Notes under the pieces: model-generated
What the model saw: the letters and a program-made list of their open reading frames with translations, nothing else
Told to the model about the DNA's origin: nothing
Database searches by the model: none
Program-made: the position numbers and the translations under genes
Part shown: positions 28,602-53,729 of the stretch, piece after piece
How positions within the stretch are numbered: position 1 is the stretch's first letter
How the letters are laid out: each line of letters opens with the position of its first letter
Assembly (NCBI GenBank): GCA_944324255.1
Contig: CALUVM010000009.1
Location: forward strand, 211-64,210
Direction of reading: 5' to 3'
Length of the DNA: 64,000 nucleotides
Source: Candidatus Gastranaerophilales bacterium
GTDB lineage: Bacteria; Cyanobacteriota; Vampirovibrionia; Gastranaerophilales; Gastranaerophilaceae

Positions 28602-30632
28602 CTACTTACCCATAGCGTAGGTTTTAACAACTGTTACAGATCCGTCAACGTTCTTACGAACACCTTTATCAATTTCTTCATCAAGGTCAGCTGCGAATGC
28701 TACCGGAGTGTATACTGAGTTTGCATCAATTGCTGCGTTGATTTGATCTCGCTGAAGGTTATTCAGGATTTTAACGTTATCGTGATCTTCCGGATTTGGA
28801 AGCGGTTCAGGGTCAGGACCAGGCTGGTCGCCGCCGTTTACTACAAGGTATGTAGTGTTGTTTGGTCTGCCGTTTTCGTTAACGTTTAATCCGTTTTCAC
28901 CGTTTGCCATATCATAAGTGATTTCTGTATTACCGTTGATTACAATTTCTTGAGCGTCACGAATATTTGTGTATTTCAAGTCATAATCTCTGCTTGCTGT
29001 TTCAACTGTTAAGTTATCAGTTTTATTGCCTACTCTGATTTGATTTGCGTGAACATCGTTACCTGTGATTTTCATATCATTTTCAGCTTCCAAGTAAACT
29101 TTATCGGCATTAACACCTGTTACATCAAGATTTGATTTAGAACCGATAGCTGCATATTGTGTATCAAGGTTTGTGATTGTACCGCCATCAACATACAGAA
29201 GAGATAATGTTGTCGGAGGAAGTAATTTATATCCTTCCATTGTTCCGATGAATTTTTCAGTTGAATCTAAACCGCCGACATATCCGTCTGCAATGAAGCT
29301 GTATTCATCGGCAGTCAAGGTTGCTTTTCCGTCAGTGATAATATTTAAAGTGCCTGATTCAAGAGCAATTGCTTGAGCTGTAGTATCAACCGATATACCG
29401 ATGCTGCCTTCTCTTGCCAAAGCATCAATAGTACCGTCTACATTTAAACTGCCTGCTGCGATTTGTCCTTCTTCAAAGTTATAACCGCCGATATGAATAT
29501 TATGAATTGAATCAATGTTTAAATTACCACCGATATTATTTTTTCCAACAAGGTGAACGTAATGTTTAATATGGTCATTTACACCTGTTGTAGTTTTTAA
29601 AGATACATTTCCGCCGGTTGTTAAATTACCGACTTCCATAACACCGCCGGCATTTGCTAATTTAACATCGCCGTCAACTTTTGCATTTGCTAAATACACC
29701 ATGCTGCCGAGGTTGTTGCCGGATTCCGCATCAATAATATTTGTTGAAGCGCTTCCTGTTGTTTTAGCATCCAAATTGCCTTTGACTTCAAAAACATTTT
29801 TATCAGGATTTGAGTAATTAAGTGCAATAACACCCTGTGAATCAATCGTTAAATCACCATTGATAGTTCCGCCGTTAACAACTTTAACAATATCTTCACC
29901 TGATAATATGTAAACATCCCCGTTAACACTTACGGTTTCTAATTTAACACCGGCATTAGCAATTTTTTGACCGTCAGCCGGAGCAACTAAATAGTCCTGA
30001 CCGTTTCTTGTAACGAGTTTGAATCCTTGTTCAGCTGTAATAATTGATTTTATAGCATTAACAGAAGGTGAAAGAATATTGAATTCACCGCCTACTGAAA
30101 AATCTGAATTCTGAATTGTTACACCGTTAATTGCAGCTTGATTTAATTTTGAAATATCTAACTGACCGTTAACATAGTTTACGCCGAGAGCTTGAGTTGT
30201 TAACATCAAGTCGCCGGCTGTAGTAAATTTAGCCCCGTCAAATAACATACCGTTCGGGTTAGATATAATTAATTTTGCAATACCATCGTTAGCATTAATA
30301 TTACCATAAATCTGAGACATCCCGCCGTTAACAGTATTAACAACCGTTAAATCGTTTGCTCCGTTTACGGCATTAAAGTTTAAACTTTCACCATTATTAA
30401 TATTTAAGGAACCCCAGTTAACATGAGCATTACCATTAAAATTAAGATCTACATTACCTGTACCGGCACCGTTCATACCGGCAAATCCGCCCTGTGTCGA
30501 GTCAATAACCGCACCGCCGATTCCGCCGCCTAAACCTGTATCCATTGCAGCAAATGAAATCTGCATTGTAGCGAACATTGTACATAGCGCGATGGCTGAT
30601 AGTTTTTTTGCAAAATTTCTCATAATTTTCAA
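28602..30632 (-). CDS. filamentous-haemagglutinin-type exoprotein with an N-terminal TPS (haemagglutination activity) domain
   Basis: Signal peptide, then NFNGNAHVNWGSLNINNGESLNFN ... LIISNPNGMLFDGAKF (NPNG motif). Followed by beta-helix-like G/N/T-rich repeats and a Pro-rich linker near the C-terminus. Confidence 0.75.
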   Translation of the reverse strand: MKIMRNFAKKLSAIALCTMFATMQISFAAMDTGLGGGIGGAVIDSTQGGFAGMNGAGTGNVDLNFNGNAHVNWGSLNINNGESLNFNAVNGANDLTVVNTVNGGMSQIYGNINANDGIAKLIISNPNGMLFDGAKFTTAGDLMLTTQALGVNYVNGQLDISKLNQAAINGVTIQNSDFSVGGEFNILSPSVNAIKSIITAEQGFKLVTRNGQDYLVAPADGQKIANAGVKLETVSVNGDVYILSGEDIVKVVNGGTINGDLTIDSQGVIALNYSNPDKNVFEVKGNLDAKTTGSASTNIIDAESGNNLGSMVYLANAKVDGDVKLANAGGVMEVGNLTTGGNVSLKTTTGVNDHIKHYVHLVGKNNIGGNLNIDSIHNIHIGGYNFEEGQIAAGSLNVDGTIDALAREGSIGISVDTTAQAIALESGTLNIITDGKATLTADEYSFIADGYVGGLDSTEKFIGTMEGYKLLPPTTLSLLYVDGGTITNLDTQYAAIGSKSNLDVTGVNADKVYLEAENDMKITGNDVHANQIRVGNKTDNLTVETASRDYDLKYTNIRDAQEIVINGNTEITYDMANGENGLNVNENGRPNNTTYLVVNGGDQPGPDPEPLPNPEDHDNVKILNNLQRDQINAAIDANSVYTPVAFAADLDEEIDKGVRKNVDGSVTVVKTYAMGK

Positions 30633-35258: not shown

Positions 35259-36845
35259 ATGGGAATGGCAGCATCTCAAGCCAGATACTTAGCTCTGGTT
35301 GCTAGAAAATCCAATTGCGAATATGAAGGACAGCAAATTAACCAGGCACGGACTGTGCTTTCTAATCAAAGTGCAAATCTGTTTAACCAGATGTTAGGAT
35401 TGTCAGTACCTGTACCTCCTAGTACTCAAGATTATACAAAAGTACAATACTCATATTCAGATGGGTCAAATGATTCAGTTATAGACAGCTGGCAGCAATT
35501 ATCCAGTGCTGATCCTGATTACAACTATGTAGTAACTCATTACTACTATACAGACCGGTATACCGGTTCCATGAAAAGATTATCAGACCCGCAAGTCCAA
35601 TTCTCCGGCGGGACAAATGCAACCATTGCGCAAATTACAGCTGCTCAAAACCTTGTTACACAAACAAAGCAAGCTTATGAAGATGCCGTAGCTGCACGTC
35701 AGGATATGGAAGCTCAAGCAGCAACACTGTCAAATTATACAGACAGAACAACGTATACCGGCATTAACGAAAGCACCTATAATGCCGAAACAGATACATA
35801 TTCATTCAGAACAAGAGATATGACCGCAGGTGAATACCATAACTATACCGGCTATAATTCTCTTGACCCTGATGATCAAGCTTTGGTGCTTGCAGGTATT
35901 CAAAGGCTTATTGATGAAGGCGCACTGGATTTAGATCCAGAAAATCCTGACTTAACAGAAATTTATTATGATGCTGAAACAGGTGACATTGCATTCAGCT
36001 CTGATCTTTCAAGCCTTTATGGCGGCACGAGCGGCGGTTCGCAAACAATATTACCGGTGCTTCATCTAACCGGAGCTCAGTCTATTGGCAATATAGCTAA
36101 TGAATATGATGACCAGATAGATGCCCTTAGAGAAGCTGAAGAGACAGCCAAAGGCGCTTATGATGCAGCCGTATTTGATTATGAATCTTTACAGCGTCCT
36201 ACTTATATCGGAAACAGCGAGTTGACATTGCTGACTTCTTTAACAAAAGATCAGGAAGCTGAAATAAGGCAGGTTGTCGCAGATTTAAAAGAACAGGGCA
36301 TTGATGCCGATATTGTAAACTGCTACAGCGAGGATGGCGGATATCAGGGCGGTATTTATTCATTCCAGCTTAACGGTACAACTTATTATACGACATATCA
36401 AGACCTGTTAAATTCATACTCAAGCGGAACGGGAAATAATCATATTGACGGACAGGCAAAATTGAATTATTACAACGCCAGCTATGTTTCTACAAGAATA
36501 GAAGAAACAGAAAAAGCACTTTTAGAAACTGACGGAAACGGCAGATTCACAAGTGTTCGCTTTGAAAATGATTCTGTAACTTATACCTTAAATATGGAAA
36601 CGGTTACTGATGAAGATGCATATCAGGATGCAATGAACCAGTATTACTATGATAATGCTGTGTATGATAAAACCGTACAAGATATTAATGCACAAACTTC
36701 ATTAATTCAACAACAAGACTTACAACTTGAATTAAGACTTAAACAGCTTGATACAGAACAAAGCGCACTGTCTACAGAAATGGAAGCTGTTAAGAAAGTT
36801 GTTGATGATAACGTTGAAAGTTCATTTAAAACCTTTAACGGATAG
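35259..36845 (+). CDS. hypothetical 528-aa protein with conserved N- and C-terminal helices and a Tyr/Thr/Asp-rich variable middle; no signal peptide
   Basis: Strong SD aggaga. Both termini resemble the 109-aa ORF at 38363. No known family recognised. Confidence 0.7.
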   Translation: MGMAASQARYLALVARKSNCEYEGQQINQARTVLSNQSANLFNQMLGLSVPVPPSTQDYTKVQYSYSDGSNDSVIDSWQQLSSADPDYNYVVTHYYYTDRYTGSMKRLSDPQVQFSGGTNATIAQITAAQNLVTQTKQAYEDAVAARQDMEAQAATLSNYTDRTTYTGINESTYNAETDTYSFRTRDMTAGEYHNYTGYNSLDPDDQALVLAGIQRLIDEGALDLDPENPDLTEIYYDAETGDIAFSSDLSSLYGGTSGGSQTILPVLHLTGAQSIGNIANEYDDQIDALREAEETAKGAYDAAVFDYESLQRPTYIGNSELTLLTSLTKDQEAEIRQVVADLKEQGIDADIVNCYSEDGGYQGGIYSFQLNGTTYYTTYQDLLNSYSSGTGNNHIDGQAKLNYYNASYVSTRIEETEKALLETDGNGRFTSVRFENDSVTYTLNMETVTDEDAYQDAMNQYYYDNAVYDKTVQDINAQTSLIQQQDLQLELRLKQLDTEQSALSTEMEAVKKVVDDNVESSFKTFNG

Positions 36846-38362: not shown

Positions 38363-38692
38363 ATGGGATTAATTACATCAACATATAGAATGATGTACCT
38401 GACAGCCTACAAGCTGACTTTGGAATCAAAGCTTCAGTGGATAGCAACTGCAAAAATGGAATTGGTTGCATCTTCCGATGAAATTTTGTCATTAGGAAAC
38501 GATCTTGATCCGGACAATCCGGCTGTTAAGCAACTGGAAGCCAGACGAGAACGTTTAACTGTACTGGAGAAAAAATTAGATATTCAAATGCAGGAATACC
38601 AGACAAGATTAGACATGGTTAATGCAGAACTCCAATCCTGTAAGAGTGCAGTAGATTCAAGTATACAAAACTCTTTCAGCTATCATTTTTAG
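38363..38692 (+). CDS. hypothetical 109-aa helical-hairpin protein, a minimal paralog of the 528-aa protein
   Basis: By eye, 12 of the first 34 residues are identical to the 528-aa protein without gaps. Shared C-terminal K..VD..(V/I)(E/Q).SF motif. Confidence 0.65.
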   Translation: MGLITSTYRMMYLTAYKLTLESKLQWIATAKMELVASSDEILSLGNDLDPDNPAVKQLEARRERLTVLEKKLDIQMQEYQTRLDMVNAELQSCKSAVDSSIQNSFSYHF

Positions 38693-42156: not shown

Positions 42157-43482
42157 TTATGCATATTGAGTAATAATTGTATTAAAAGCTGAAGCTACCT
42201 GCGGGTTGACATCTTTATCTTTTTTAATTATTTGACCAACCTCAAACAGAAGTTCCTGCTGACCCTGCTCGGTTTTTAATTTATTATTAACGTTGATCTG
42301 GTTAGCTATATCATCTCCGACAAGAGCTTTTGTAACTTTTCCGGTGAGCCACATACCAATTGCACCGCCTACCATACCGATAACACCGCCTATTGCAGTT
42401 CCTACACCAGGGCCGAAGAATGTTCCTATTTTAGCACCCAGAGCACCTGCTGCCCAGATACCGGCTGCTTCACCTGCTGCCCAACCTGCTGCGTTGCCTA
42501 AAGCTTTTACGGTTGTCTGTCCTAATTGTTTCATACCATAGTTCTGGGAAGCTTTACCTGCTGCCTTGTCTTCTTTATCTTTTGCAAATGCAGTTTTAAT
42601 ATTACCCATACCGAAGAAGAGTTCTATTCCTGCAAACAGAAGAGATGCGCCAATACCGCCTTTTTTCAAAGCCTGTTTGAATGTCGGGTTAAGCGGCGTT
42701 TTAAGAAGACCTTTAGTATTATTAGCAATTGTTGTTTTATCTGCTATTCTTGAAGCTACTGAAGGAAGTTCATTTTTTGAACCGGTGAAGAAGTTTTTAA
42801 CACCGTTAGTGAATTTGAACCAGCCGCCGTTATTTACATAAGCATGTTTTAATGTTTCGGAAGCTTTTGCTATTTCATCAATATTATTTGATTTTAAAGC
42901 TCGTTCCATTATTTCTTTTAATTGTTTATATTCCTCTGCTGAATATTTCTTTCTGAACAATCCAAGCTTCCAGTATTTACGGCTGGATGCTTTATGCATC
43001 TGGAAATATGCTTCCTGCATTACCTGATAGTTCTTATCCCAGAGAGCTTTAATATTCGGATCTTTGAACATTTTATGAACATCTCCGCTTCCTATTAAAG
43101 AGTTTATCGGGTGTGCTAAATAGCGGGGATTATTCATAACAGCACCCATAACACCCATGCCCATAATCGCACTGCCCAGGCTTTCAGAAGGGCTTAAAGA
43201 CTTAGCGTAATAATTTGCAAGAGTCTGCATATCTTTATTGTTTTGAAGGTTTGCGGAGGTTTGTTCTGCCTGTGCATTTGCTAATGCTGCTGAATTATAA
43301 TCATAAGCTGAATTATAATACATATCAGGATTAAGATATCCGTATGCATTAGCTAAAGAGTCATAAGAATTATAAGGTACGCCTGTATAATTATTAAAAT
43401 AATTCGGAACGGACATATTCAATCCAGGTGCTCCGTAAAGCATTGTTTCCATATTTAAGAGTGATTGAATTGGTGCTACCAT
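42157..43482 (-). CDS. hypothetical 441-aa protein: Tyr/Asn-rich N-terminus, helical middle, C-terminal glycine-zipper membrane segment
   Basis: NYFNNYTGVPYNSYDSLANAYGYLNPDMYYNSAYDYN, and GWAAGEAAGIWAAGALGAKIGTFFGPGVGTAIGGVIGMVGGAIGMWL. No signal peptide. Confidence 0.65.
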   Translation of the reverse strand: MVAPIQSLLNMETMLYGAPGLNMSVPNYFNNYTGVPYNSYDSLANAYGYLNPDMYYNSAYDYNSAALANAQAEQTSANLQNNKDMQTLANYYAKSLSPSESLGSAIMGMGVMGAVMNNPRYLAHPINSLIGSGDVHKMFKDPNIKALWDKNYQVMQEAYFQMHKASSRKYWKLGLFRKKYSAEEYKQLKEIMERALKSNNIDEIAKASETLKHAYVNNGGWFKFTNGVKNFFTGSKNELPSVASRIADKTTIANNTKGLLKTPLNPTFKQALKKGGIGASLLFAGIELFFGMGNIKTAFAKDKEDKAAGKASQNYGMKQLGQTTVKALGNAAGWAAGEAAGIWAAGALGAKIGTFFGPGVGTAIGGVIGMVGGAIGMWLTGKVTKALVGDDIANQINVNNKLKTEQGQQELLFEVGQIIKKDKDVNPQVASAFNTIITQYA

Positions 43483-43629: not shown

Positions 43630-46600
43630 ATGAAAGTTGAAAGTATACATTCCAAAGCTAATATTAAATTCGGAAGCAAAAGAACCGCAAGAAATATAAC
43701 AGAGCAGCTGGCTAAAAATAATCAATATTCTTTAACAGAGCCTAATCAAAGACAAATAACAAACTCAATAAAAGAACTCGCAAAGGTTCCGGGAGAAAAA
43801 AATGTAAACTTTCTTCTTGATACAGCATCAAAAGTTAAATATTCTACGAATATAAAACTTAAAAACGCTCCCAAACACAATTGGAAGAATTTGCTTCTTG
43901 CTGCTGCAACGACTGCCGCACTTATTACTCCGGCTATATTAAAAGACTCTTTTAATAAAAAGATAAATGAGATTCAAAATAATAAAAATTTGAGCAATGA
44001 AGAAAAAGAAATCTTAAACCTTAGAAAGAATCTTTTAAAATCAGCCGACCTGAAACAGATAAAAAAAGAAACCGTAGGTTCTATTAAAGATTTTGAAGCC
44101 AATCTTGATTATTTTATAGTATCAAGTGAAACAACAACAGAACATAAAAAGTATGTGCTTGAAAAGCTCAATTATTTTATGAGTGATGATTATCAAATTA
44201 ATCCTCAATTAAAAGATAAAAAGTCTATTGCTCTGGCTGAAATAGTTAACGATATGGCTCTTAACTCACCGGAAGAAAACATCCCTAATATTAAAGCTGT
44301 TAACCAAAAACAACACGGTATGTGTGCCGCAATTTCAATTGTCAGGAAAAAACTTGCATATGAAGATAAGCCTAATTACATAGACGCAATCCTTTCCGAG
44401 CTGGATTCAACCCCTTATCTTACTGTCTATGACAGAAATAAACTTTTTAGCAAAGAAAAAATACAGGTTCAAAAAGTTCCGGTAGACTTTGAAACAGCTC
44501 TTGCAAACGGATACAGGATTATTGATGCTTCAACCATGCACTGGATGCAAGTCGCTCAAATGTCAGGTTCAAGCAGTCTTGCGTATGATGAATACAGACC
44601 GTTTGATAAAGAAAATTTTGATGTAAATAAAGATGCTTTTTATAATGTCGGATTTGATGATCCAAAGCTCCAAAAGACCCAAAATTATTTTCAGGCGCTA
44701 AAAAAAGCTGAATCTGTACTCGCTGATTTAAAAGCTAATTATTTAAAAAAAGAAGAAATTAATAGTGATAAAAGAAATCGCTTTAACAAAAGAATTTCAA
44801 CTCTCCGTCAGATAAACGAAAGTCTGAGCAGAAATATCGCCTCACTAGACACCGGTCTGTCTGCCAATGAAATCCAGACTTTATTATCCGGTATTTTAAA
44901 ACTTAACAAACACTTTTCAGATAAAATTAACCCTGACGACAAATTTTCATATATTCCAAATGAAGAAACATCTGTCAAAAAAAATAAAATTAAAGGATAT
45001 ATAATTGAAAACAGTTCAATAAAAGATATTCCCGATGAAATTCTGGACAAAATTTATGATTTTGTTGAATTTCATTCATCTCTTCAAGGCAATCCGGCGA
45101 ACAAAAATAAAGCTATTACAGAAGCAAGAAGTTTATATAATGCAGCAGCAGCTTTCAGATACCAGATGATAAAAGGTTTAGATGAAGAAACTATGCTTGC
45201 GGGTTTTATCCGCAGTGAAGGTTTGAAGAATAAAGAATCTCTTCTGCTTGATACAGTTGATACGGCGATGTATAAGATTGACACCGACTCAGAGGATTCA
45301 AATGCTATAATAGAAAACCTTCTGACTGTTTTTGACCTTAAAAACCCTTCTAAAGAAAATGTTCTGGCATTACTTGGCGAATTAAAAGATTCCATAAATA
45401 CTATTCTTACTGATGAACTTGATTCAATATATGAAAAATTAACAATCCCCGGGGGAAGACGGGGTGCTTTAATTACCCAGCTTGAAGGCATAAAAAACCA
45501 GGCTCTCGCCGGAGATAAAGAATCCGGCTATGCACTGAAAGAAATTTTAAATATTAAAAAGCATTCAGATATTGAAGAAGCTGTCAGAGATTTGCAAACA
45601 GATATCTCTAATTGTGATGACGAAAGTTTTTTAGAAATATTTGACAATTTACACAATGTTTCACAAATTGAAAATATTGAAAATACATTCAACAATCTTA
45701 TTCAGGCAATGAACGGGGAAAATCAGCAAGAAATTATTTCAAGATTTGCGGAAGTTAATAATATAGCAGAAGGTCTTAGCGAAGATTTATTAAATCAAAT
45801 ACTTAATGAAATCGGAACTCAAATACAAACATACAAAAACTTTATTGAGAACTTGTATAAAGTTTTTACTGTTACGGATAAAGACGGAGAGATTATTATT
45901 TCACCTAACCCTAAAGATATAATTATAAAAAAATGGGAAAATGAAAAAACTATTATCCCTGCAAAAGACCTGAAAGAACTGCAAGAACACTTTACTAAAA
46001 TATCAAAAGACCGTTCGCAGGATGAATTTTCTACAAGGCAGGGAAAATTGCACGACAAAAGTCTGTATCAATTTTCCAGCAATGAAAAAGCTACGCTTAA
46101 TGAAATTAAAAAGAACATCAACCCGATGTTTTCCTATATTCAAAAACAAATACCTGCAGTACAGAAAGAATTAAAAGAACCTTTAGAAGAACTCAAACGC
46201 ATAGTAGGCTTACATAACGGAAGCTACTGGGTTAGAGAAGAAGGGCATTCCGGCTTGACTTCTGAAGAAGAAGTTAGGGTTCTTGAATACATGACAGGAC
46301 GCCCGCATTATGAAACTACAGACTTAAGGTTTGCTATGGAAAAAATTAAGAATTCCCCGTATTCAGGAATTTCCAGCTCTTCTGTCTATGATGATGCAAT
46401 GGGATGGCACGCTCAATATATAGCAGATATAAGACCGGTGAAAATAAAGAATAAGGAAGGCAAGGAAGAAGAAAAAGAAGTCTTGTTCCACGACAACAGC
46501 TGGGGAGCCTCCGAATACGAAAACACCTGGGTTGATTCAAACGGACTTACAAGAACAGACTACAGCGATAATAGAGGAGGCTCACTCGGGTATATTACAA

Positions 46601-49401
46601 ATAATAAATTCCAGAACGGAAACTTCACCGACAGAATTTTGAATGATATGGTTTTAAAAGAAAAACCTGACCTGACCAGAAATAAAATATACAAAAAATT
46701 AAAACATGTCGATAACAACCTTAATAACCTTCCTCAAATGTCAGGCATTATTCTGGAAGGATATTCTCCGAATACAAAATCAATTGCAGCAGAAATCCAC
46801 GATGCAATGTTTATTCCGTCACTTTCATTGATGGGGAAATTGGAAAAACTTGCAAAAGAACTTTCTCCGGAAGAAGTAAAAAATTTAATCAAACAAACCG
46901 AAACCGCTGCTACAGGATGGGAAAAAACTTATAATAACCTTCAAAAGAGATTGTATTCACCTTTTGAGAAGAAAATTCAAACAAAAGAAGATTATGACAA
47001 ACTGCCTGATAATGACTATTTAAAAGTTGTGCTTGAAAAAGTCGCACTTAAATGGAATTATCAGATAAACGGGCTTGAAAATGAACTTGCAAAAGTAAAA
47101 AATACCAAAGACTTATCAAAGTTCCGTTCTGCACAAAAAAACAGAGCTATTAATAGTTTTAAATATGCCTTTTTTAAGGATATTAACGCTATAGATTTTG
47201 TCTGCAACGAGTTTGGAGATAGCGAATACGATAAAATCGATAACATTCTTGATAAATACAACATTAAATTGACCAATAAAGAACTTTATTCAATCGTGAC
47301 AAATTTCGAGCTGGGAACGGAAGATTTTGACGGAAGTGTTAAAAATACTGTTAAACTATTCCTTGACAGTATCAAATCCGATTTGGATAAAGTAGTTGCT
47401 AATGAAGAAGCTAAAAAAGAAATCCTTAATATCTACAAAGAGTTCTTTGAAAAAACAGCTTATTTTAATAACAAAGACATTGCTGACGGAAACCTCAAAA
47501 ATATAATTAATTTTATTGATCGTGAATATTCTCCTAATGATGATGAAGAATTAGTAAATATATACAGAAAACTTCAAGACATGACCACAGAGGAATTCAA
47601 AAAAGAAGTTTTATCCAAGGTTAATAATAAAGATCTCGGAATTAAAAACTATACGGGCTATGACATTTTGAAAAAACTGCAGCGTTATGAAAGCAGTGCC
47701 GATACAGCTTTTATGAATACCATTTATTATGATACATTCTACGCTAACTACGGACAAACCGATTTCAAAAAAGCTTATCGTTACAAACGCTTCGCAAGAG
47801 AAGCTATGTATAATAATAAATATAATGTCAGCTCAATATACAGAGAAATGGCTTATGATTTATCATATCTAACCCTGCCTAAACTCTTTAACAAATATAA
47901 AGACCGCAATCTTGATAAATACGGCGCCTATCCAGCATATCCAAAACTTGAATACTTAAATGAAGATTCTCTCGGATACTCATATAACTCCTTCATAGAC
48001 TCCCTTGACTATAAATACGAAGCTATTAAAGCTTTGCAAGACCAGATAAAATCTTATGAACTTGCAAATCAGCTGTTAAATTATTTAAAGAAATATGATA
48101 ACAGCAAACCCGTTACCGGAGTTCTATACAGGAATTTAAACCTAATCTTCGGCAGCCTCATTTTGAATGCCGATGACAATGACCCGGTAATGGAACCGCT
48201 GATTGATGCGGCGGAAAAGGCAATGGAACTGGGAAAAGGATCTTTATTTAATGAATATAAGCCTTATATTAATACAATAATATCCACAATAGAAGAACTT
48301 AAAAATACAACATCAAAAGAAGCTCTGGAAAATGCTCTCAGAGTTGAAAAAAATTCGCTGCACGAAACTATAAAAGTTTTTGCAAAGAGCCTTATTCAAG
48401 AAAAATACAGAGATGATGTAATTTCTATTGCAAATAAATATATACAGGCACTTATTAAATACAAAAACGAAGATATAGAAACCCTGCCTGACGAACTTTA
48501 TGAGGCTTTCTCTAAATATCATATTTTAAGAAACCCGAAAGAACTGTTGGAAGCTTATATTCTGTCAGTTGCAAAAGATTCTCCTGACAGCAAGTATCTT
48601 GAAACCTACAGGACACTCATGACAAGGGGGCTGCAATATGCACAGCTGGCAAATATTCAAGATATATTAATGGGAGCAGTTTCAAAAGGGGTGGAAACCA
48701 GTGTAAAAGATATGTTTAAAAACTACAAGCTTCACAATGCCTATGGTGAAGAAACATCTATGAACTCTAAGGATATTCTTGCACAGATGATTCATAAGCT
48801 CATCATTGATAACGAAAGAGAAACCGCTCTTATGTTCATTGACAAACTTGGCATAGGAGAAGATTATATCAAATATCTTTCAGAATCGATAGACTTTGAT
48901 AATCTAAAGAATATACTCAAAGAAGCTTTTGATACCGCTAACAACTTCAACGCCTTTACACAGGAATCGGAAACTTATCTTGACGAAGCCAGAGAACTTT
49001 CTATTGAAGAAGAAAATTATGAACAAATTCTTGACCTTGCTAAAAACAAAATACTCAGAACAGCAAAAAAACATAAAATTAACAACAAAGAAATTCTCCC
49101 GCTTATCAATGCATTAGATGCCATTAAAAAGGTCTATGCAGACCATCCGGACGGAAACAGACAAGTTCTGTTTGATTCAGTTATGATGAGTGCCAAAGAA
49201 CAAACAACAAGTCTTGCAACCACTAAGGTTAATAATTTAAATCTTATTCTAAACTCAAATGCAACTATTCTTGACCTTGTAAATCAACTTCTTCTTAAAG
49301 AAGATTCCGAGGCTAATAAGCTCAGAACCGAAATGAATGAAAAATTTAAGAAACTGATTGAATACAAGAGCAGTCTTTCTAATTTGCAACAAGAAGAATA
49401 A
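43630..49401 (+). CDS. giant 1923-aa mostly helical protein with a putative split papain-like (clan CA) cysteine peptidase core
   Basis: SD aagagg. NQKQHGMCAAISIV (Q226/C232), GWHAQYIADI (H927), FHDNSWGAS...GGSLGYI (D955/N956). Hydrophobic segment at about residues 85-104. Confidence 0.75.
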   Translation: MKVESIHSKANIKFGSKRTARNITEQLAKNNQYSLTEPNQRQITNSIKELAKVPGEKNVNFLLDTASKVKYSTNIKLKNAPKHNWKNLLLAAATTAALITPAILKDSFNKKINEIQNNKNLSNEEKEILNLRKNLLKSADLKQIKKETVGSIKDFEANLDYFIVSSETTTEHKKYVLEKLNYFMSDDYQINPQLKDKKSIALAEIVNDMALNSPEENIPNIKAVNQKQHGMCAAISIVRKKLAYEDKPNYIDAILSELDSTPYLTVYDRNKLFSKEKIQVQKVPVDFETALANGYRIIDASTMHWMQVAQMSGSSSLAYDEYRPFDKENFDVNKDAFYNVGFDDPKLQKTQNYFQALKKAESVLADLKANYLKKEEINSDKRNRFNKRISTLRQINESLSRNIASLDTGLSANEIQTLLSGILKLNKHFSDKINPDDKFSYIPNEETSVKKNKIKGYIIENSSIKDIPDEILDKIYDFVEFHSSLQGNPANKNKAITEARSLYNAAAAFRYQMIKGLDEETMLAGFIRSEGLKNKESLLLDTVDTAMYKIDTDSEDSNAIIENLLTVFDLKNPSKENVLALLGELKDSINTILTDELDSIYEKLTIPGGRRGALITQLEGIKNQALAGDKESGYALKEILNIKKHSDIEEAVRDLQTDISNCDDESFLEIFDNLHNVSQIENIENTFNNLIQAMNGENQQEIISRFAEVNNIAEGLSEDLLNQILNEIGTQIQTYKNFIENLYKVFTVTDKDGEIIISPNPKDIIIKKWENEKTIIPAKDLKELQEHFTKISKDRSQDEFSTRQGKLHDKSLYQFSSNEKATLNEIKKNINPMFSYIQKQIPAVQKELKEPLEELKRIVGLHNGSYWVREEGHSGLTSEEEVRVLEYMTGRPHYETTDLRFAMEKIKNSPYSGISSSSVYDDAMGWHAQYIADIRPVKIKNKEGKEEEKEVLFHDNSWGASEYENTWVDSNGLTRTDYSDNRGGSLGYITNNKFQNGNFTDRILNDMVLKEKPDLTRNKIYKKLKHVDNNLNNLPQMSGIILEGYSPNTKSIAAEIHDAMFIPSLSLMGKLEKLAKELSPEEVKNLIKQTETAATGWEKTYNNLQKRLYSPFEKKIQTKEDYDKLPDNDYLKVVLEKVALKWNYQINGLENELAKVKNTKDLSKFRSAQKNRAINSFKYAFFKDINAIDFVCNEFGDSEYDKIDNILDKYNIKLTNKELYSIVTNFELGTEDFDGSVKNTVKLFLDSIKSDLDKVVANEEAKKEILNIYKEFFEKTAYFNNKDIADGNLKNIINFIDREYSPNDDEELVNIYRKLQDMTTEEFKKEVLSKVNNKDLGIKNYTGYDILKKLQRYESSADTAFMNTIYYDTFYANYGQTDFKKAYRYKRFAREAMYNNKYNVSSIYREMAYDLSYLTLPKLFNKYKDRNLDKYGAYPAYPKLEYLNEDSLGYSYNSFIDSLDYKYEAIKALQDQIKSYELANQLLNYLKKYDNSKPVTGVLYRNLNLIFGSLILNADDNDPVMEPLIDAAEKAMELGKGSLFNEYKPYINTIISTIEELKNTTSKEALENALRVEKNSLHETIKVFAKSLIQEKYRDDVISIANKYIQALIKYKNEDIETLPDELYEAFSKYHILRNPKELLEAYILSVAKDSPDSKYLETYRTLMTRGLQYAQLANIQDILMGAVSKGVETSVKDMFKNYKLHNAYGEETSMNSKDILAQMIHKLIIDNERETALMFIDKLGIGEDYIKYLSESIDFDNLKNILKEAFDTANNFNAFTQESETYLDEARELSIEEENYEQILDLAKNKILRTAKKHKINNKEILPLINALDAIKKVYADHPDGNRQVLFDSVMMSAKEQTTSLATTKVNNLNLILNSNATILDLVNQLLLKEDSEANKLRTEMNEKFKKLIEYKSSLSNLQQEE

Positions 49402-49418: not shown

Positions 49419-50243
49419 ATGGCAGATTTAGTGGAAAAACTTAAAGAAATAGGCTTCAATTCATATGAAGCAAAGGTGTATATTGCCCTTCTTAAAAAAT
49501 ATCCTATGACAGGCTATGAAACATCAAAATTAGCCAATATCCCGCAAGCCAGAACTTATGACACCCTGAAATCTCTTGAAGAAAAAGGAGTTGTTGCTGC
49601 TGCAAATACAAAACCTGTAACCTATACACCTCTTAAGCCTAAGCAATTGCTGTCAAGCTACCAGCGGAAAATGAACTCCACTATAAACTATCTGGAGAAG
49701 CACCTGCCGGAAGTTAAAGACAGTTATAATGAGCCAATTATAACTATTTCAGGAAAACAAAATATTCAAAATAAAATCCTCGAAGTTATCCAGAATGCTA
49801 AGCGAGAAATTTATATGGAAATCTGGTCACAGGATTTTAAGATTTTTGAACAGGAACTTTTAAACGCATATAACAGAAATGTTGAAATAAGAATTGTAGG
49901 ATATGATAACTTCTCTTCAAAATTCGGTCTTATTTTTGAACACGCTTTTGCAAGAGATATAGAAATGTCCCTCGGCGGCAGGATGGTCATCATAGCCGCT
50001 GATGATTCTGAAGGTATTGTCGGTAAGATTTCATCTTTTAAAAATGACTTATTTGATACAAATATAATCTGGACTCAAAATAAAAGTATCGTTTTTATTA
50101 TAAAAGAATTCATTGTTCATGATATGTACTTAATTGATGTAGAAGAAAACCTCGTTGAGCAGATGAAATACATCTACGGCAAAGGCTTTAAGCGGCTGAA
50201 AGATAAAGTTCTGGGGGCGAATTCACTTTATATGATACATTAA
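49419..50243 (+). CDS. TrmB-family transcriptional regulator
   Basis: The N-terminal winged helix LKEIGFNSYEAKVYIALLKKYPMTGYETSKLANIPQARTYDTLKSLEEKGVV is a typical TrmB HTH. Confidence 0.8.
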   Translation: MADLVEKLKEIGFNSYEAKVYIALLKKYPMTGYETSKLANIPQARTYDTLKSLEEKGVVAAANTKPVTYTPLKPKQLLSSYQRKMNSTINYLEKHLPEVKDSYNEPIITISGKQNIQNKILEVIQNAKREIYMEIWSQDFKIFEQELLNAYNRNVEIRIVGYDNFSSKFGLIFEHAFARDIEMSLGGRMVIIAADDSEGIVGKISSFKNDLFDTNIIWTQNKSIVFIIKEFIVHDMYLIDVEENLVEQMKYIYGKGFKRLKDKVLGANSLYMIH

Positions 50244-51910
50244 ATGAGCTTATATTTCTGTAATAACTCAACAACCGCTTTGATTGCAGCTTTTGTTTTA
50301 TCAATAAAATCTTCAGCCAGAGAAGAGTCAAAATTTCGCTGCAAAACTTTCAGAACATCCGCCTGCATATATTGATAAACAAATACCGACCTTACAATAG
50401 AGGACACCAGAGCCGGAGAAAATACGCCTTTTGAAAGCATAGCAATAATATCGTTAATATGATGAAATTCATCTTGAATAAACTCTTTTAGTTCAAATTT
50501 AAACGGTTCGACATTAGAAATCGGAGAAGTTGAGGAATTACCCCAGAGATTTAACTCTTTAAAAGAACAGTGCTTAACACCATCTATATATGCACCGAAT
50601 GAAGAAAGGTTATAAATCTCTTTATAGTCAAGCTCTCTTACTATTGATTCAATATGATGAATAAATACTTCATAATCTTCTCTTGTGTAAACCCTGCCGC
50701 CATTTACCGATTTTACAGTCACAACATTTTTCTTTTGAGTTCCGACAAGAATCTGTTCGGGAGAAATTCTGTTCATAACTTCACCATCGGCATAGACTAA
50801 ATTGTCTTTAAATGCCAAATCCAAACCTGCGAGTATAATTCTGGAGAAACCGAGTTTAATAGCGGAAATAAGCGCAAGTATAGTTGCAGAACCCCCTGAT
50901 TCATAGAAAATCAGGTCGTTATTAAATTTGGATATTTTATCCATAAGAAAATCTGTATTAGAAAAATTAATAAATACCTTTTTAAACCCGCTGTCCATTA
51001 TGGCAGAATCCGTTCTGATATCCATAATACAGTTCATACGTTCAAAATAGTTTTCAAGTCCGCCCAGTGTTAAATTAATTGAAGCGGCATCAAGGCATAC
51101 GACAAAATCCGGAGTTATTCCGTTTTGCAGCAGGAATTTTAAAGACTTATTTACAGCAAAAATTATAAAACTGTTCCTGTTCGCTTGAATATACTCAATA
51201 TTCTCTTCTAAAGAAGGTCCCGCTCCCGCAATCAATGCAGTTTGTCCTGAAAACTTCTTTTCTAAATCTGACAGCTTGTAGCCGGTTGTTTCATTTACGG
51301 CAGCAATATTTGCCACGGTATTTATAAGCCATCTTTTTGAAAATCTTGTAATAGTATTAATATCTACCATCTTGCTTTTGCAAGTATCATAGACTTTTTG
51401 TGTCAGAAGGAGCAGCTCTCTGTTATGTGAAATTGAATAATTTTTTAGATAAACAATCTCAACTCTGTCTTTAGTAATAAAGACAGTATTGAGTTTCGCA
51501 AGCAGCTCATCTAAATCATTGGTAATATAAACCCTGCCGCTTGCCAGATGCTGAGAAATATCCACATTATTTAATACAAAATGCAAAAAGTTAACATCCG
51601 GCTCATACACAAATATTCTGGATGGATATGTATTAAAAGTTTCATCCAATAAATACCCCAGTCCGATACCAAATGTTATAATAATATCGTTACTATGCAT
51701 CTCATTTTTAATGGTCGCTTTAAGCATCTCACGAATTGCTTCACGAGGGTTATTTAAATCATCAGAAGGAACATCGTCTTTTAAGAGAATGTAGTCATTA
51801 GAAGGTGTAATATAATAAGAAATACCGGCCCTCGACTGTTCAATCGAAATCCGGGAAAGACGCCGCTTTAAAGCCAGGTTGTCTATATACTCCAAGTTTT
51901 TTTCAAACAT
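50240..51910 (-). CDS. Maf-type (motility-associated-factor, DUF115/MptE-like) glycosyltransferase family protein
   Basis: ALIAGAGPSLEENIEYI...IFAVNKSLKFLLQNGITPDFVVCLDA core. Start taken at the ATG at 51910 (MFEKNLEYI), because the ORF-track start at 51982 is a TTG. Confidence 0.7.
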   Translation of the reverse strand: MFEKNLEYIDNLALKRRLSRISIEQSRAGISYYITPSNDYILLKDDVPSDDLNNPREAIREMLKATIKNEMHSNDIIITFGIGLGYLLDETFNTYPSRIFVYEPDVNFLHFVLNNVDISQHLASGRVYITNDLDELLAKLNTVFITKDRVEIVYLKNYSISHNRELLLLTQKVYDTCKSKMVDINTITRFSKRWLINTVANIAAVNETTGYKLSDLEKKFSGQTALIAGAGPSLEENIEYIQANRNSFIIFAVNKSLKFLLQNGITPDFVVCLDAASINLTLGGLENYFERMNCIMDIRTDSAIMDSGFKKVFINFSNTDFLMDKISKFNNDLIFYESGGSATILALISAIKLGFSRIILAGLDLAFKDNLVYADGEVMNRISPEQILVGTQKKNVVTVKSVNGGRVYTREDYEVFIHHIESIVRELDYKEIYNLSSFGAYIDGVKHCSFKELNLWGNSSTSPISNVEPFKFELKEFIQDEFHHINDIIAMLSKGVFSPALVSSIVRSVFVYQYMQADVLKVLQRNFDSSLAEDFIDKTKAAIKAVVELLQKYKLI

Positions 51911-51978
51911 CTCTCTTCCTTCTAATAATTTATAAGTATCATATTTTAGGCAAAAAGTAAAGGATACCGGAGTCAAAA

Positions 51979-52869
51979 TCAACCATTCTCAGTACTTGTC
52001 CCGAGCCTCTTATCAACCGAATTTTCAAAATCCCTAAAAACATCACTGCCGACTAATTGTTCGAGTCTTGAGCGTTTTTCAAAAAACTGACCTCTGGCTT
52101 TCTGCTGTTCATCAAGAGCATCCCTATAAAAAGTATCCGTTATCAATATTACTTCCTTTGAAAGCTTCTGAGAATTTTTATAGTTTCTGTAGCATTTTTC
52201 AACTGTTTCGGACGTCATATCATAAAGCTGCCTTGAGGTCATATAATCATAATACATATCGACAACTTTCTGCTGCAAATCTTCAACTTTTCTGATAAGA
52301 ATAATCATATCGGCATCAGTAACCTGTGTATACTTGTAATTCAAAGCTTTTGAATCCTGTGACATTATGCCTAAAGTATTTCCGCCGATAAGAGCCGCAC
52401 TCGCAAGAACCGGATTTCCCATACCTGCGCCGATAAAGGTTGACATTCCGGCAATTGTTGTAAGAACTTTTTTAACTGCTCCGCTGTCCGGTTTATCTCT
52501 ATCAGGGTTTGATAACTTATATATAGCAAATTTTATTGTATCGCTTTTCATAGCGGCACCCTGCCAGAGGAGAGATAAATCGCTTTGCATTTCGTTATAG
52601 TCTATGTCGATAGATTTTGAAATCTCCATCGCCATCTTTTTTATGCTTAAATCCGCATACGTCAGATTTTGCGTTTCTTTTTGCTCTTCTTTCTGAATAT
52701 TTGGTTTAATAACAGGTTCTATATCATAATTGTATTTTGTTTCAGGCGTATCAGTAGTCCCCATACGGTATAGAATATCTTTAGGCGATTTAACATCCTC
52801 CAGAGTTATAGCCGCTGCATACTGGACAGTCATTAAAAATATTAGACTTAAAGCAATATACTTCTTCAT
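51979..52869 (-). CDS. hypothetical secreted/membrane protein, paralog B of a tandem pair
   Basis: Signal peptide. Shares LSLLWQGAAMKSDTIKFAIYKL, a Gly/Ala-rich hydrophobic segment and a TDADMIILIRKVEDLQ helix with the upstream gene. Confidence 0.65.
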   Translation of the reverse strand: MKKYIALSLIFLMTVQYAAAITLEDVKSPKDILYRMGTTDTPETKYNYDIEPVIKPNIQKEEQKETQNLTYADLSIKKMAMEISKSIDIDYNEMQSDLSLLWQGAAMKSDTIKFAIYKLSNPDRDKPDSGAVKKVLTTIAGMSTFIGAGMGNPVLASAALIGGNTLGIMSQDSKALNYKYTQVTDADMIILIRKVEDLQQKVVDMYYDYMTSRQLYDMTSETVEKCYRNYKNSQKLSKEVILITDTFYRDALDEQQKARGQFFEKRSRLEQLVGSDVFRDFENSVDKRLGTSTENG

Positions 52870-53729
52870 TTTTTCTTCCCTTTCTTCTCAGGGAGCTTAG
52901 TATCGTCTTTATATAACACTGAATTAAAGTCATATTGATACATATCCAGAGAATCTACCGCTTTTTTACCGGCAAGCCGCTGAAGCTGGATATGATACTT
53001 TTTAGCAGACTGCTCAAGACTATATTCCTGAAGCCTCATAGAATCATACAAAGAAGAAGATATAGCAAGCTCAAGCACATCGGAACTATTTGCAGCTTTT
53101 GAATAATTTCTGCTGTACAAAAGCATCTTAGCTCTTGTAGCTTTTAGCTGGGTCAATGTATTTTTGTAGTTATAATAAGAACTGACCAGAGAATCCTGCA
53201 GTTCTTCCACCATACTAGCAAGTTCAATAAGCTCTGTATCAGTGAGCGGAGTTTCCTGCGGTACATTTTTTCTGTTAAGAAGTCCCATTGCAAGCCTGCC
53301 TGCCGAAAAAGCCGAGGTTGAAAGCGTAGGGTCTGCGCCCATTAAATACGGAACGAAAGATGCTCCTGATACAACTGCAGAAAGAGTTTTTGCCATTAAT
53401 GACGAATGAATTCTTCTTTGAGATTCAGGGGTGGCTAACTTTTTGAGCGCAAATTCTATAACTCTGTTATTCTCTACAGTGCCCTGCCAGAGTTTTTCCA
53501 AATCTTTTAAATCGTGTTCTTTCTGTTCTTCTATAATATTCGCTAAAGTTTCCGAATCATTTATCAGAAGTGTACCTTTCAAGGTTGTAGTGTCTTCCGA
53601 TTTCATATACTGGGGCTTTTCTAAATCAGTTTTATCCAGAGTAACCACATCAGATGAAGATGCAAAGACATACCCTGCCGGCATTAGTAATAAAGATAAA
53701 ACTATACTCCCCAACAAACTCTTCTTCAT
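52866..53729 (-). CDS. hypothetical secreted/membrane protein, paralog A of a tandem pair
   Basis: Signal peptide. LEKLWQGTVENNRVIEFALKKL ... TDTELIELASMVEELQ is collinear with the downstream paralog. 4-nt overlap with it. Confidence 0.65.
   Translation of the reverse strand: MKKSLLGSIVLSLLLMPAGYVFASSSDVVTLDKTDLEKPQYMKSEDTTTLKGTLLINDSETLANIIEEQKEHDLKDLEKLWQGTVENNRVIEFALKKLATPESQRRIHSSLMAKTLSAVVSGASFVPYLMGADPTLSTSAFSAGRLAMGLLNRKNVPQETPLTDTELIELASMVEELQDSLVSSYYNYKNTLTQLKATRAKMLLYSRNYSKAANSSDVLELAISSSLYDSMRLQEYSLEQSAKKYHIQLQRLAGKKAVDSLDMYQYDFNSVLYKDDTKLPEKKGKKK

Follow-up and report, generated by a model that had tools for sequence, protein, structure and literature searches.

The giant gene and its predicted architecture

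The window considered here is a stretch of 64,000 nucleotides (nt) from contig CALUVM010000009.1 (assembly GCA_944324255.1) of a Candidatus Gastranaerophilales bacterium, a lineage of non-photosynthetic Cyanobacteria also called Melainabacteria. By far its longest open reading frame (ORF), at positions 43630-49401 on the forward strand, is the subject of this study. It spans 5772 nt including the stop codon, encodes a protein of 1923 amino acids (aa), hereafter the giant protein, and is preceded by an AAGAGG ribosome-binding site 8 nt upstream of its ATG. The window is an ordinary stretch of low-GC chromosome (GC content of 35%), in which ilvD, topA, dprA and polysaccharide genes are present. 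An original prediction, made from this single sequence, had proposed that the protein carries a papain-like catalytic core split by a long helical insertion. Its description of the ORF and of the product length is borne out by the ORF list and translation, all four strings that it quoted (NQKQHGMCAAISIVRKK, AMGWHAQYIADIRPV, EVLFHDNSWGAS and GGSLGYI) were found in the translation, and the codons that it assigned to the candidate residues C232, H927 and N956 are correct.

The structure of residues 1-1200 was predicted with AlphaFold2 from 37 aligned sequences, giving a model with a mean predicted local distance difference test score (pLDDT) of 82.3 and a predicted template-modelling score (pTM) of 0.72. 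The parts of the gene, all on the forward strand, are the following.

43630-49401, forward strand: complete giant gene, from the ORF list and translation
43630-44241, forward strand: N-terminal conserved helical domain, aa 1-204; pLDDT ~90 for residues 21-210
43882-43941, forward strand: Ala-rich hydrophobic stretch, aa 85-104; the model has helices at 85-99 and 102-117, pLDDT 82-92
44242-44661, forward strand: Cys lobe of the putative clan CA domain, aa 205-344, from the AlphaFold2 model and conservation; Q226 at 44305-44307, C232 at 44323-44325
44662-46242, forward strand: all-helical insertion, aa 345-871, from the DSSP assignment of the AlphaFold2 model; pLDDT mostly 80-92, conservation 0.33-0.5
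46243-46779, forward strand: His/Asn beta lobe of the putative clan CA domain, aa 872-1050; H927 at 46408-46410, N956 at 46495-46497, W958 at 46501-46503
46780-49398, forward strand: C-terminal region of ~870 aa, aa 1051-1923; residues 1051-1200 modelled as helical

In the model, residues 1-15 are disordered and are followed by a helical N-terminal domain (18-209). The Cys lobe (220-340) is predicted to be mixed alpha/beta, with Q226 in the loop before the helix that C232 opens (232-245) and a beta hairpin after the second helix. An all-helical module, which begins with a 62-residue helix (345-406), extends from residue 345 to ~870 and leads into a beta-rich lobe (878-1045). In this lobe, the second position of a strand (926-940) is taken by H927; the strand is followed by a hairpin and by a second strand (946-954) running into D955-N956-S-W958-G959. 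In clan CA cysteine peptidases the nucleophilic Cys lies at the start of a helix in one lobe and the His at the start of a strand in the other, with the orienting Asn or Asp on the neighbouring strand, and the placement of C232, H927 and N956 on the predicted secondary structure corresponds to this layout. The residues picked out in the original prediction lie where a papain-like fold would have them, with the Cys at a helix start, the His at a strand start and the Asn after the hairpin partner strand, in this model as well as in the model of the shortened construct described below. The insertion was proposed to comprise ~690 residues. The helical split is real and C232 and H927 are indeed 695 residues apart, but the insert itself is ~527 residues long (345-871), because the 695-residue spacing includes the ~110-residue remainder of the Cys lobe. 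No internal repeats, nor any duplication between the insert and the N- and C-terminal regions, were found. The C-terminal region has no match in Pfam, NCBIfam, PDB, PADLOC or PHROGs, and contains conserved islands at residues 1111-1140, 1291-1350 and 1411-1440, the last of which includes KYGAYPAYPK. A 135-aa antisense ORF (45084-45491, reverse strand) lies inside the giant gene; it is unsupported and probably a by-product of AT-rich sequence.

As the original prediction had noted, no N-terminal hydrophobic signal is present in the translation. It had also suggested a membrane anchor at residues 85-104. This stretch is hydrophobic here (maximum 19-residue Kyte-Doolittle mean of 1.46, and 1.4-2.0 across the clade of ~1925-aa proteins), yet it is polar (KLKNATKESLAHSN) in the clade of ~2050-aa proteins. 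Lacking conservation, and being modelled with confidence as two helices that form part of the N-terminal domain, the candidate anchor was rejected, and the stretch is probably a pair of buried helices rather than a transmembrane segment. The extreme N-terminus (43630-43700, aa 1-24) is disordered in the model (pLDDT 40), yet F14 and R18 within it are kept without exception, the most distant relatives included, and it could serve as a motif for docking, inhibition or export. A profile of the N-terminal domain, searched against 5.8 billion proteins, retrieved nothing beyond fragments of the same family. As the domain does not occur in any other architecture, a role as a modular trafficking domain was rejected.

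Distribution of the family and conservation of the candidate catalytic residues

A word-indexed search of the same 5.8 billion proteins yielded 234 relatives, 120 of which were listed. Nearly all of these best 120 of 234 are 1.9-2.2 thousand aa long and none of them has a Pfam domain, while the names encountered among the relatives listed are 'hypothetical protein', from 'Cyanobacteria bacterium SIG28/RUI128' or 'Candidatus Gastranaerophilales'. When a single genome for each GTDB species was scanned, relatives of the giant gene were placed in at least 138 species genomes, and the best 80 of these 138 are gut metagenome-assembled genomes that either bear the label Gastranaerophilales, Gastranaerophilaceae, Melainabacteria or 'Vampirovibrio sp.' or bear none. 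Two gene-carrying GTDB records (L053 and L054) bear the labels 'uncultured Brachyspira sp. RUG745' and 'Acutalibacteraceae bacterium'; their contigs are probably mis-binned, because the distribution of the giant gene is otherwise exclusively within Gastranaerophilales.

An exhaustive phmmer search of 1.84 billion representative proteins was conducted with the catalytic region as the query, after deletion of the insertion. It returned 155 proteins (~155 clusters at 50% identity), all of which belong to the giant-protein family itself. Every full-length match falls into two stretches, ~205-345 and ~870-1050, and the matches to a single stretch are fragments. There was thus neither a contiguous, unsplit relative among the 1.84 billion representatives nor a bridge from the family to a known peptidase. 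Family members are ~1.8-2.5 thousand aa long; the most distant ones (1823-2478 aa, lobes 27-35% identical) are encoded in low-GC chromosomal settings beside clpB, dprA/topA or panK. Literature and database searching did not turn up any publication or annotation of the family. Judging from these searches, the giant protein is specific to gut Gastranaerophilales and its family was previously unannotated.

Residues Q226, G230, C232, H927, D955, N956, W958 and G959 are invariant in alignments of both 37 and 82 sequences. In an alignment of 22 sequences which includes the most divergent members (lobes 27-35% identical), invariance is limited to 26 of the 1923 positions (1.35%), among them Q226, G230, C232, H927, N956 and W958, as well as F14, R18, L27, Y71, W85, L89, D160, F162, Y188 and K198 in the N-terminal domain. 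Conservation in orthologues had been proposed as a check on the catalytic assignment, and C232, H927 and N956, together with Q226, come through it unchanged in all 22 sequences. This is an independent test, because the residues had been picked from one sequence before any homologue was seen, and the presence of all four specified residues within the 1.35% invariant class is not due to chance. The giant protein contains only three Cys in its 1923 residues, and C232 is the only conserved one. The best conserved blocks are the two lobes and residues 151-210 (mean column identity of 0.7-0.8), with the Cys lobe the most conserved of all, while the helical insert and the C-terminal half have a mean column identity of 0.3-0.5. 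The helical module is nevertheless found between the lobes in every family member: the Cys-to-His spacing, 695 residues here, varies between 465 and 721 across all members and never collapses.

Sequence profiles and fold comparison

The original prediction had assigned the protein to family C1 (papain), with an insertion. Part of the basis for this is present, since Q226, C232, H927, N956, W958 and G959 occur in the order expected for C1, with the Q-x5-C spacing, the Asn-Ser-Trp-Gly motif and the later G-Y-I, and hhalign pairs Q19 and C25 of papain with Q226 and C232. This alignment however covers just 16 columns (P 0.065). The proposed profile check did not yield any Pfam C1 or C2 match, either for the whole protein or for constructs from which the insertion had been deleted; the C1 profiles (Peptidase_C1, PF00112, and Peptidase_C1_2, PF03051) remain unmatched by the full protein and by 25 such constructs at E-values up to 10. 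The Cys-to-His spacing is 695 residues (465-721 in the family) against ~130 in C1, and both a signal peptide and an I29 propeptide are absent. The beta hairpin of the Cys lobe and the distance from the Asn to the GYI (31 residues against 10) are closer to calpain, judging in part from the known structures of papain and calpain, and the best fold match is a calpain rather than any C1 enzyme. Membership of family C1 is accordingly considered extremely unlikely.

The Cys, His and Asn of the giant protein are also in the order of the triad of family C2 (calpain). For comparison with this family, an alignment of 22 sequences was assembled from the database matches to a CAPN1 core sequence that is 97% identical to a real calpain-1. 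The hhalign comparison extends over 40 columns (score 20.1, P 0.074) and sets H-A-Q-Y...D-N-S-W-G-A-S-E-Y-E-N-T-W-V-D-S of the giant protein against H-A-Y-S...R-N-P-W-G-E-V-E-W-T-G-A-W-S-D-S, pairing H with H, N with N, W with W, G with G, E with E, W with W and DS with DS. The calpain family is operationally defined by a match to the Peptidase_C2/CysPc profile (PMC4631099, PMC9380684). Going by profiles, the giant protein lies outside both C1 and C2, because matches to PF00112 and PF00648 are absent.

A Foldseek search with the model of residues 1-1200 is dominated by non-significant alpha-solenoid matches, and its two specific matches, both in the region of the beta lobe, are the calpain-3 protease core (prob 0.77) and staphopain. 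A chimera consisting of residues 205-344 and 872-1050 was also modelled, from full-length homologues aligned to it with the insert columns dropped. This insertion-deleted model has a mean pLDDT of 73.4 and a pTM of 0.76, and its secondary-structure layout is unchanged. Searched against 350,542 PDB chains, its top match is the calpain-3 core (6bkj_C, E 0.037, prob 0.80, 323 columns), although the match is a weak one, with a template-modelling score (TM-score) of 0.36/0.37 and a root-mean-square deviation (rmsd) of 9.1 Å. The second is IdeS (E 0.063, 315 columns), and SERA5 and a C39-like peptidase are within the top 50. All four are clan CA cysteine peptidases, and the top two span the whole domain. 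A search of the insertion-deleted model against BFVD (viral structures) was uninformative and added nothing.

From the conservation, the predicted layout and the fold neighbours, we consider it reasonably probable that the giant protein is a very divergent hydrolase of the calpain/papain type (clan CA) with a Cys-His-Asn triad, split lobes and a helical scaffold, and most likely an endopeptidase. The pattern of motifs and the fold neighbours lean towards calpain (C2) rather than papain. If active, the protein would be a candidate for a new clan CA family, one whose split architecture is unusual.

Several results weigh against this interpretation. The full protein gave zero matches to Pfam and NCBIfam, Peptidase_C1 and Peptidase_C2 included, the 25 insertion-deleted constructs gave only scattered noise in Pfam (E up to 10) and no peptidase family, and searches of the PDB were empty whether the query was the protein itself, a profile of 37 sequences or an insertion-deleted profile. 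The hhalign scores (P 0.065 and 0.074) were matched by 19 of 150 column-shuffled controls, and neither the papain nor the calpain alignment rises above shuffled ones. Every Foldseek match has an E-value above 0.001, with a TM-score of ~0.37 and an rmsd of ~9 Å; such low TM-scores are compatible with one lobe superposing alone, and the insertion-deleted construct is itself artificial. Model confidence falls below a pLDDT of 50 in the loop carrying the Gln (223-228) and in a loop beside the beta lobe (862-870). Finally, no family-wide conserved partner gene was found across 82 loci, and the neighbourhood does not provide any functional hint.

These same results raise the question of whether the resemblance is coincidental, with the Cys, His and Asn having a structural or metal-binding role in a novel fold, on what would be a non-enzymatic helical scaffold. 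A statistically significant peptidase match is absent from every search, model quality is poor in the loops close to the putative active site, and the placement of the candidate triad is a prediction at the level of secondary structure. We nevertheless regard coincidence as very unlikely, since four residues chosen blind all fall within the 1.35% of positions that are invariant, their placement at the ends of helices and strands matches clan CA exactly, and the two best fold neighbours in the PDB are both clan CA cysteine peptidases. A metal site would moreover normally require more than one Cys or His ligand, while a single Cys is conserved here.

The evidence at the level of the fold does not separate general endopeptidases from other enzymes with a papain-like fold, such as deubiquitinase-like isopeptidases, deamidases, transglutaminases or acyltransferases, all of which use a Cys-His-(Asn/Asp/Gln) triad. 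The presence among the top structural matches of IdeS, which is highly substrate-specific, and the giant scaffold, which would suit a very specific substrate better than proteolysis in bulk, could both be taken to favour such a chemistry. It is on the other hand established that an oxyanion Gln six residues before the Cys together with Asn-x-Trp-Gly after the His is typical of C1 and C2, and that this combination of motifs is missing from transglutaminases, NAT enzymes and Cif-type deamidases. The extended calpain motif N-x-W-G-x-x-E...W-x-D-S points to a peptidase as well, and Gastranaerophilales are extracellular gut bacteria for which a ubiquitin-bearing target is not known. An enzyme other than a general endopeptidase on this fold is therefore judged unlikely.

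Genomic neighbourhood

The two genes flanking the giant gene are the following.

42157-43482, reverse strand: 441-aa protein, divergent from the giant gene; glycine-zipper C-terminal region, no Pfam family
49419-50243, forward strand: TrmB-type transcriptional regulator (PF01978, E 8.7e-20; PF11495, E 3.7e-10), starting 17 nt downstream of the giant gene

Both had been described in the original prediction, as a divergent upstream gene and a TrmB-type regulator 17 nt downstream, and both were recovered at these positions. The regulator may share a transcript with the giant gene. In the ~1925-aa clade, ~20 loci preserve the order ilvD, 441-aa gene, giant gene, TrmB gene, Maf-like gene. The 441-aa gene occurs in 21 of the 82 related loci, always immediately upstream and divergent, and is confined to this clade; the TrmB gene is downstream of the giant gene in 18 related loci, with 80-91% identity. 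In the other clades the neighbours are housekeeping genes, e.g. ftsZ (convergent), dnaJ, clpB and panK. Synteny in the ~2050-aa clade is entirely unlike that in the clade of the window: at locus L028 and 14 more of its loci, ftsZ and a conserved 119-aa gene come after the giant gene in convergent orientation. An origin from a defence system or a prophage was rejected, given that the full protein has no matches in PADLOC or PHROGs and that the region is ordinary chromosome with topA, dprA and ilvD. Where synteny is kept, the giant protein shares 40-70% identity with the copy in the window, against 80-97% for ilvD and TrmB; outside its catalytic and N-terminal blocks it is therefore evolving comparatively fast.

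The neighbourhood and the N-terminus bear on the possibility that the giant protein is an exported effector, toxin or surface component which leaves the cell by a non-Sec route, e.g. through the flagellar-type export apparatus still present in many Gastranaerophilales, with the conserved disordered N-terminus as the signal. The Sec signal is absent, yet the extreme N-terminus is disordered with F14 and R18 invariant. The faster divergence relative to ilvD and TrmB is often seen in proteins facing the host or the environment. A Maf/MptE-like flagellin-modification gene lies 0.8 kb downstream, and a 2176-aa protein with FliD_N and FliD_C is encoded upstream in locus L002. Most Gastranaerophilales, furthermore, are reported in a 2026 preprint to have kept flhB, fliI and flgG, for which a role in secretion is postulated (10.64898/2026.04.24.720558). 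The Maf and FliD neighbourhood is however limited to one clade, the other having ftsZ, dnaJ, clpB and panK. In addition, the N-terminal domain is found in no other architecture, unlike the modular trafficking domains of polymorphic toxins, the length and domain order of the protein are rigidly conserved, and no immunity-like small gene is consistently adjacent. Export of this kind is hence doubtful, and we give it a low probability.

Some observations on the neighbouring genes are worth recording. The 441-aa protein has a Met/Tyr/Asn-rich N-terminus and a glycine-zipper, membrane-like C-terminal third, and shows 33-74% identity across the 21 loci; its matches to PHROG 'tape measure' proteins (E 5e-9) are on a Gly-rich segment and probably compositional. 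The Maf/MptE-like gene beside the TrmB gene (50240-51982, reverse strand) matches PF01973 (E 5e-34) and, weakly, Maf_flag10_N. The 2176-aa protein of L002 (1-6217, reverse strand), with FliD_N and FliD_C at its ends, is encoded upstream of a 439-aa neighbour. It would represent a giant protein of the flagellar-cap type, in a lineage of which some genomes only contain complete flagellar sets. Beyond the Maf/MptE-like gene, two tandem paralogues of ~290 aa (51979-52869 and 52866-53729, both on the reverse strand) overlap by 4 nt and are 27% identical (E 2e-15); they have signal-peptide-like N-termini and no Pfam family, and the pair is kept in 9 related loci.

Further away, proteins of 528 aa (35259-36845, forward strand) and 109 aa (38363-38692, forward strand), neither of which has a Pfam family, are alike by BLASTP (E 0.001). 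Both show a similar pattern at the N-terminus, MG..A/T S..R..YL..A.K, and both have a C-terminal coiled coil with ..SF at its end. Across eight related loci the 109-aa protein shows 80-96% identity, a degree of conservation that is unusual when a protein is unannotated. A 676-aa protein (28602-30632, reverse strand) matches the two-partner secretion (TPS) domain below the threshold (E 7.8e-7; 29.7 bits, cutoff 33.5) and may be a TpsA-like exoprotein.

Proposed function

On the interpretation favoured here, that of a divergent clan CA hydrolase, the giant protein would be a soluble protein, as no signal peptide or conserved transmembrane segment is present, and presumably a cytoplasmic one, because an export signal is absent. 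Its catalytic core would be assembled from two distant stretches, the Cys lobe (205-344) contributing the oxyanion Gln226 and the nucleophile Cys232, and the beta lobe (872-1050) contributing His927, Asn956 and Trp958, and the two would pack together in a papain-like manner. The ~530-residue helical module would lie between the lobes, with the ~200-residue helical N-terminal domain and the ~870-residue C-terminal region around them. The enzyme would act as a cysteine endopeptidase, peptidase chemistry being presumed over the related acyl-transfer chemistries, and the helical insert and flanks may serve as a scaffold for the binding of a substrate or a regulator. Such a scaffolding or regulatory role is suggested by analogy with the alignment of the calpain lobes and with separase-type scaffolds, and activity could be set, as in calpain, by bringing the two lobes into register. 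A more far-reaching version of this proposal would make the protein the founder of a clan CA family that defines the Gastranaerophilales, in which the obligatory ~500-residue arm is an allosteric or mechanical switch and the enzyme becomes competent only once a partner, bound by the arm and the flanking helical scaffold, aligns Cys232 with His927, i.e. a bacterial, calcium-independent counterpart of calpain on a scaffold the size of separase. This version is speculative, and in our estimation rather unlikely.

Gastranaerophilales are uncultured and their cell biology is little known. They occur widely in the guts of animals, and among human populations they are enriched in non-industrialised ones (10.64898/2026.04.24.720558). 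The giant gene is among their largest and, although present in at least 138 species genomes, is wholly unannotated. Should the interpretation hold, a new family would be added to clan CA, the papain fold would be seen to tolerate an obligatory module of ~500 residues between its lobes in bacteria, and C232, H927 and labelling with activity probes would offer a testable handle on a lineage-defining protein. Should it fail, there would still be a conserved family of giant proteins whose most invariant residues need another explanation.

Comparison with known systems

The C1 domain is contiguous, comprises ~220 residues and usually comes with a signal peptide and a propeptide. Papain and the giant protein share the Q-x5-C, the His, the N-S-W-G, the later G-Y-I and the catalytic layout of clan CA. 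The giant protein differs from papain in that it has no PF00112 match, no signal peptide, no propeptide and no disulfide cysteines (three Cys in all), in that its lobes are ~530 residues apart, and in the longer segment between NSWG and GYI. IdeS/Mac-1 (MEROPS C66) and staphopain (C47) are bacterial clan CA cysteine peptidases found among the fold matches of the models, but unlike the giant protein they are small, secreted and single-domain, IdeS uses a Cys-His-Asp triad, and sequence similarity is nil.

With regard to the split, a precedent is provided by deubiquitinases of the USP type (MEROPS C19), in which insertions hundreds of residues long are tolerated between the Cys-bearing and the His-bearing part of a papain-like fold. 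They are however eukaryotic or viral, have an N-x5-C box and no NxWG, and do not match the giant protein in sequence or fold. With regard to size, separase has ~2000 residues, and its large helical scaffold carries and controls a single cysteine-protease domain. It is an analogy only, as its domain is caspase-like (clan CD), C-terminal and unsplit, and homology to the giant protein was not detected.

The calpain core (MEROPS C2, CysPc, subdomains IIa/IIb) shows the most extensive likeness. It has the Gln, Cys, His and Asn in the same order, the Cys at a helix start in one lobe and the His and Asn on a beta hairpin in the other, as in the model of the giant protein, and its motif N-x-W-G-x-x-E-...-W-x-D-S aligns with that of the giant protein. 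Calpain is also the best fold neighbour in the PDB of both models, with a TM-score of only ~0.37, and like the giant protein most calpains are multidomain proteins without a signal peptide. In calpain, activity depends on the alignment of the two lobes. The differences are that PF00648 is not matched by the giant protein and the profile-profile score is not above that of shuffled controls, that the Cys and His are 695 residues apart instead of ~157, and that the CBSW/C2L, EF-hand and PPC domains of calpains are absent. Bacterial calpains often lack the calcium sites of the protease core (PMC4631099).

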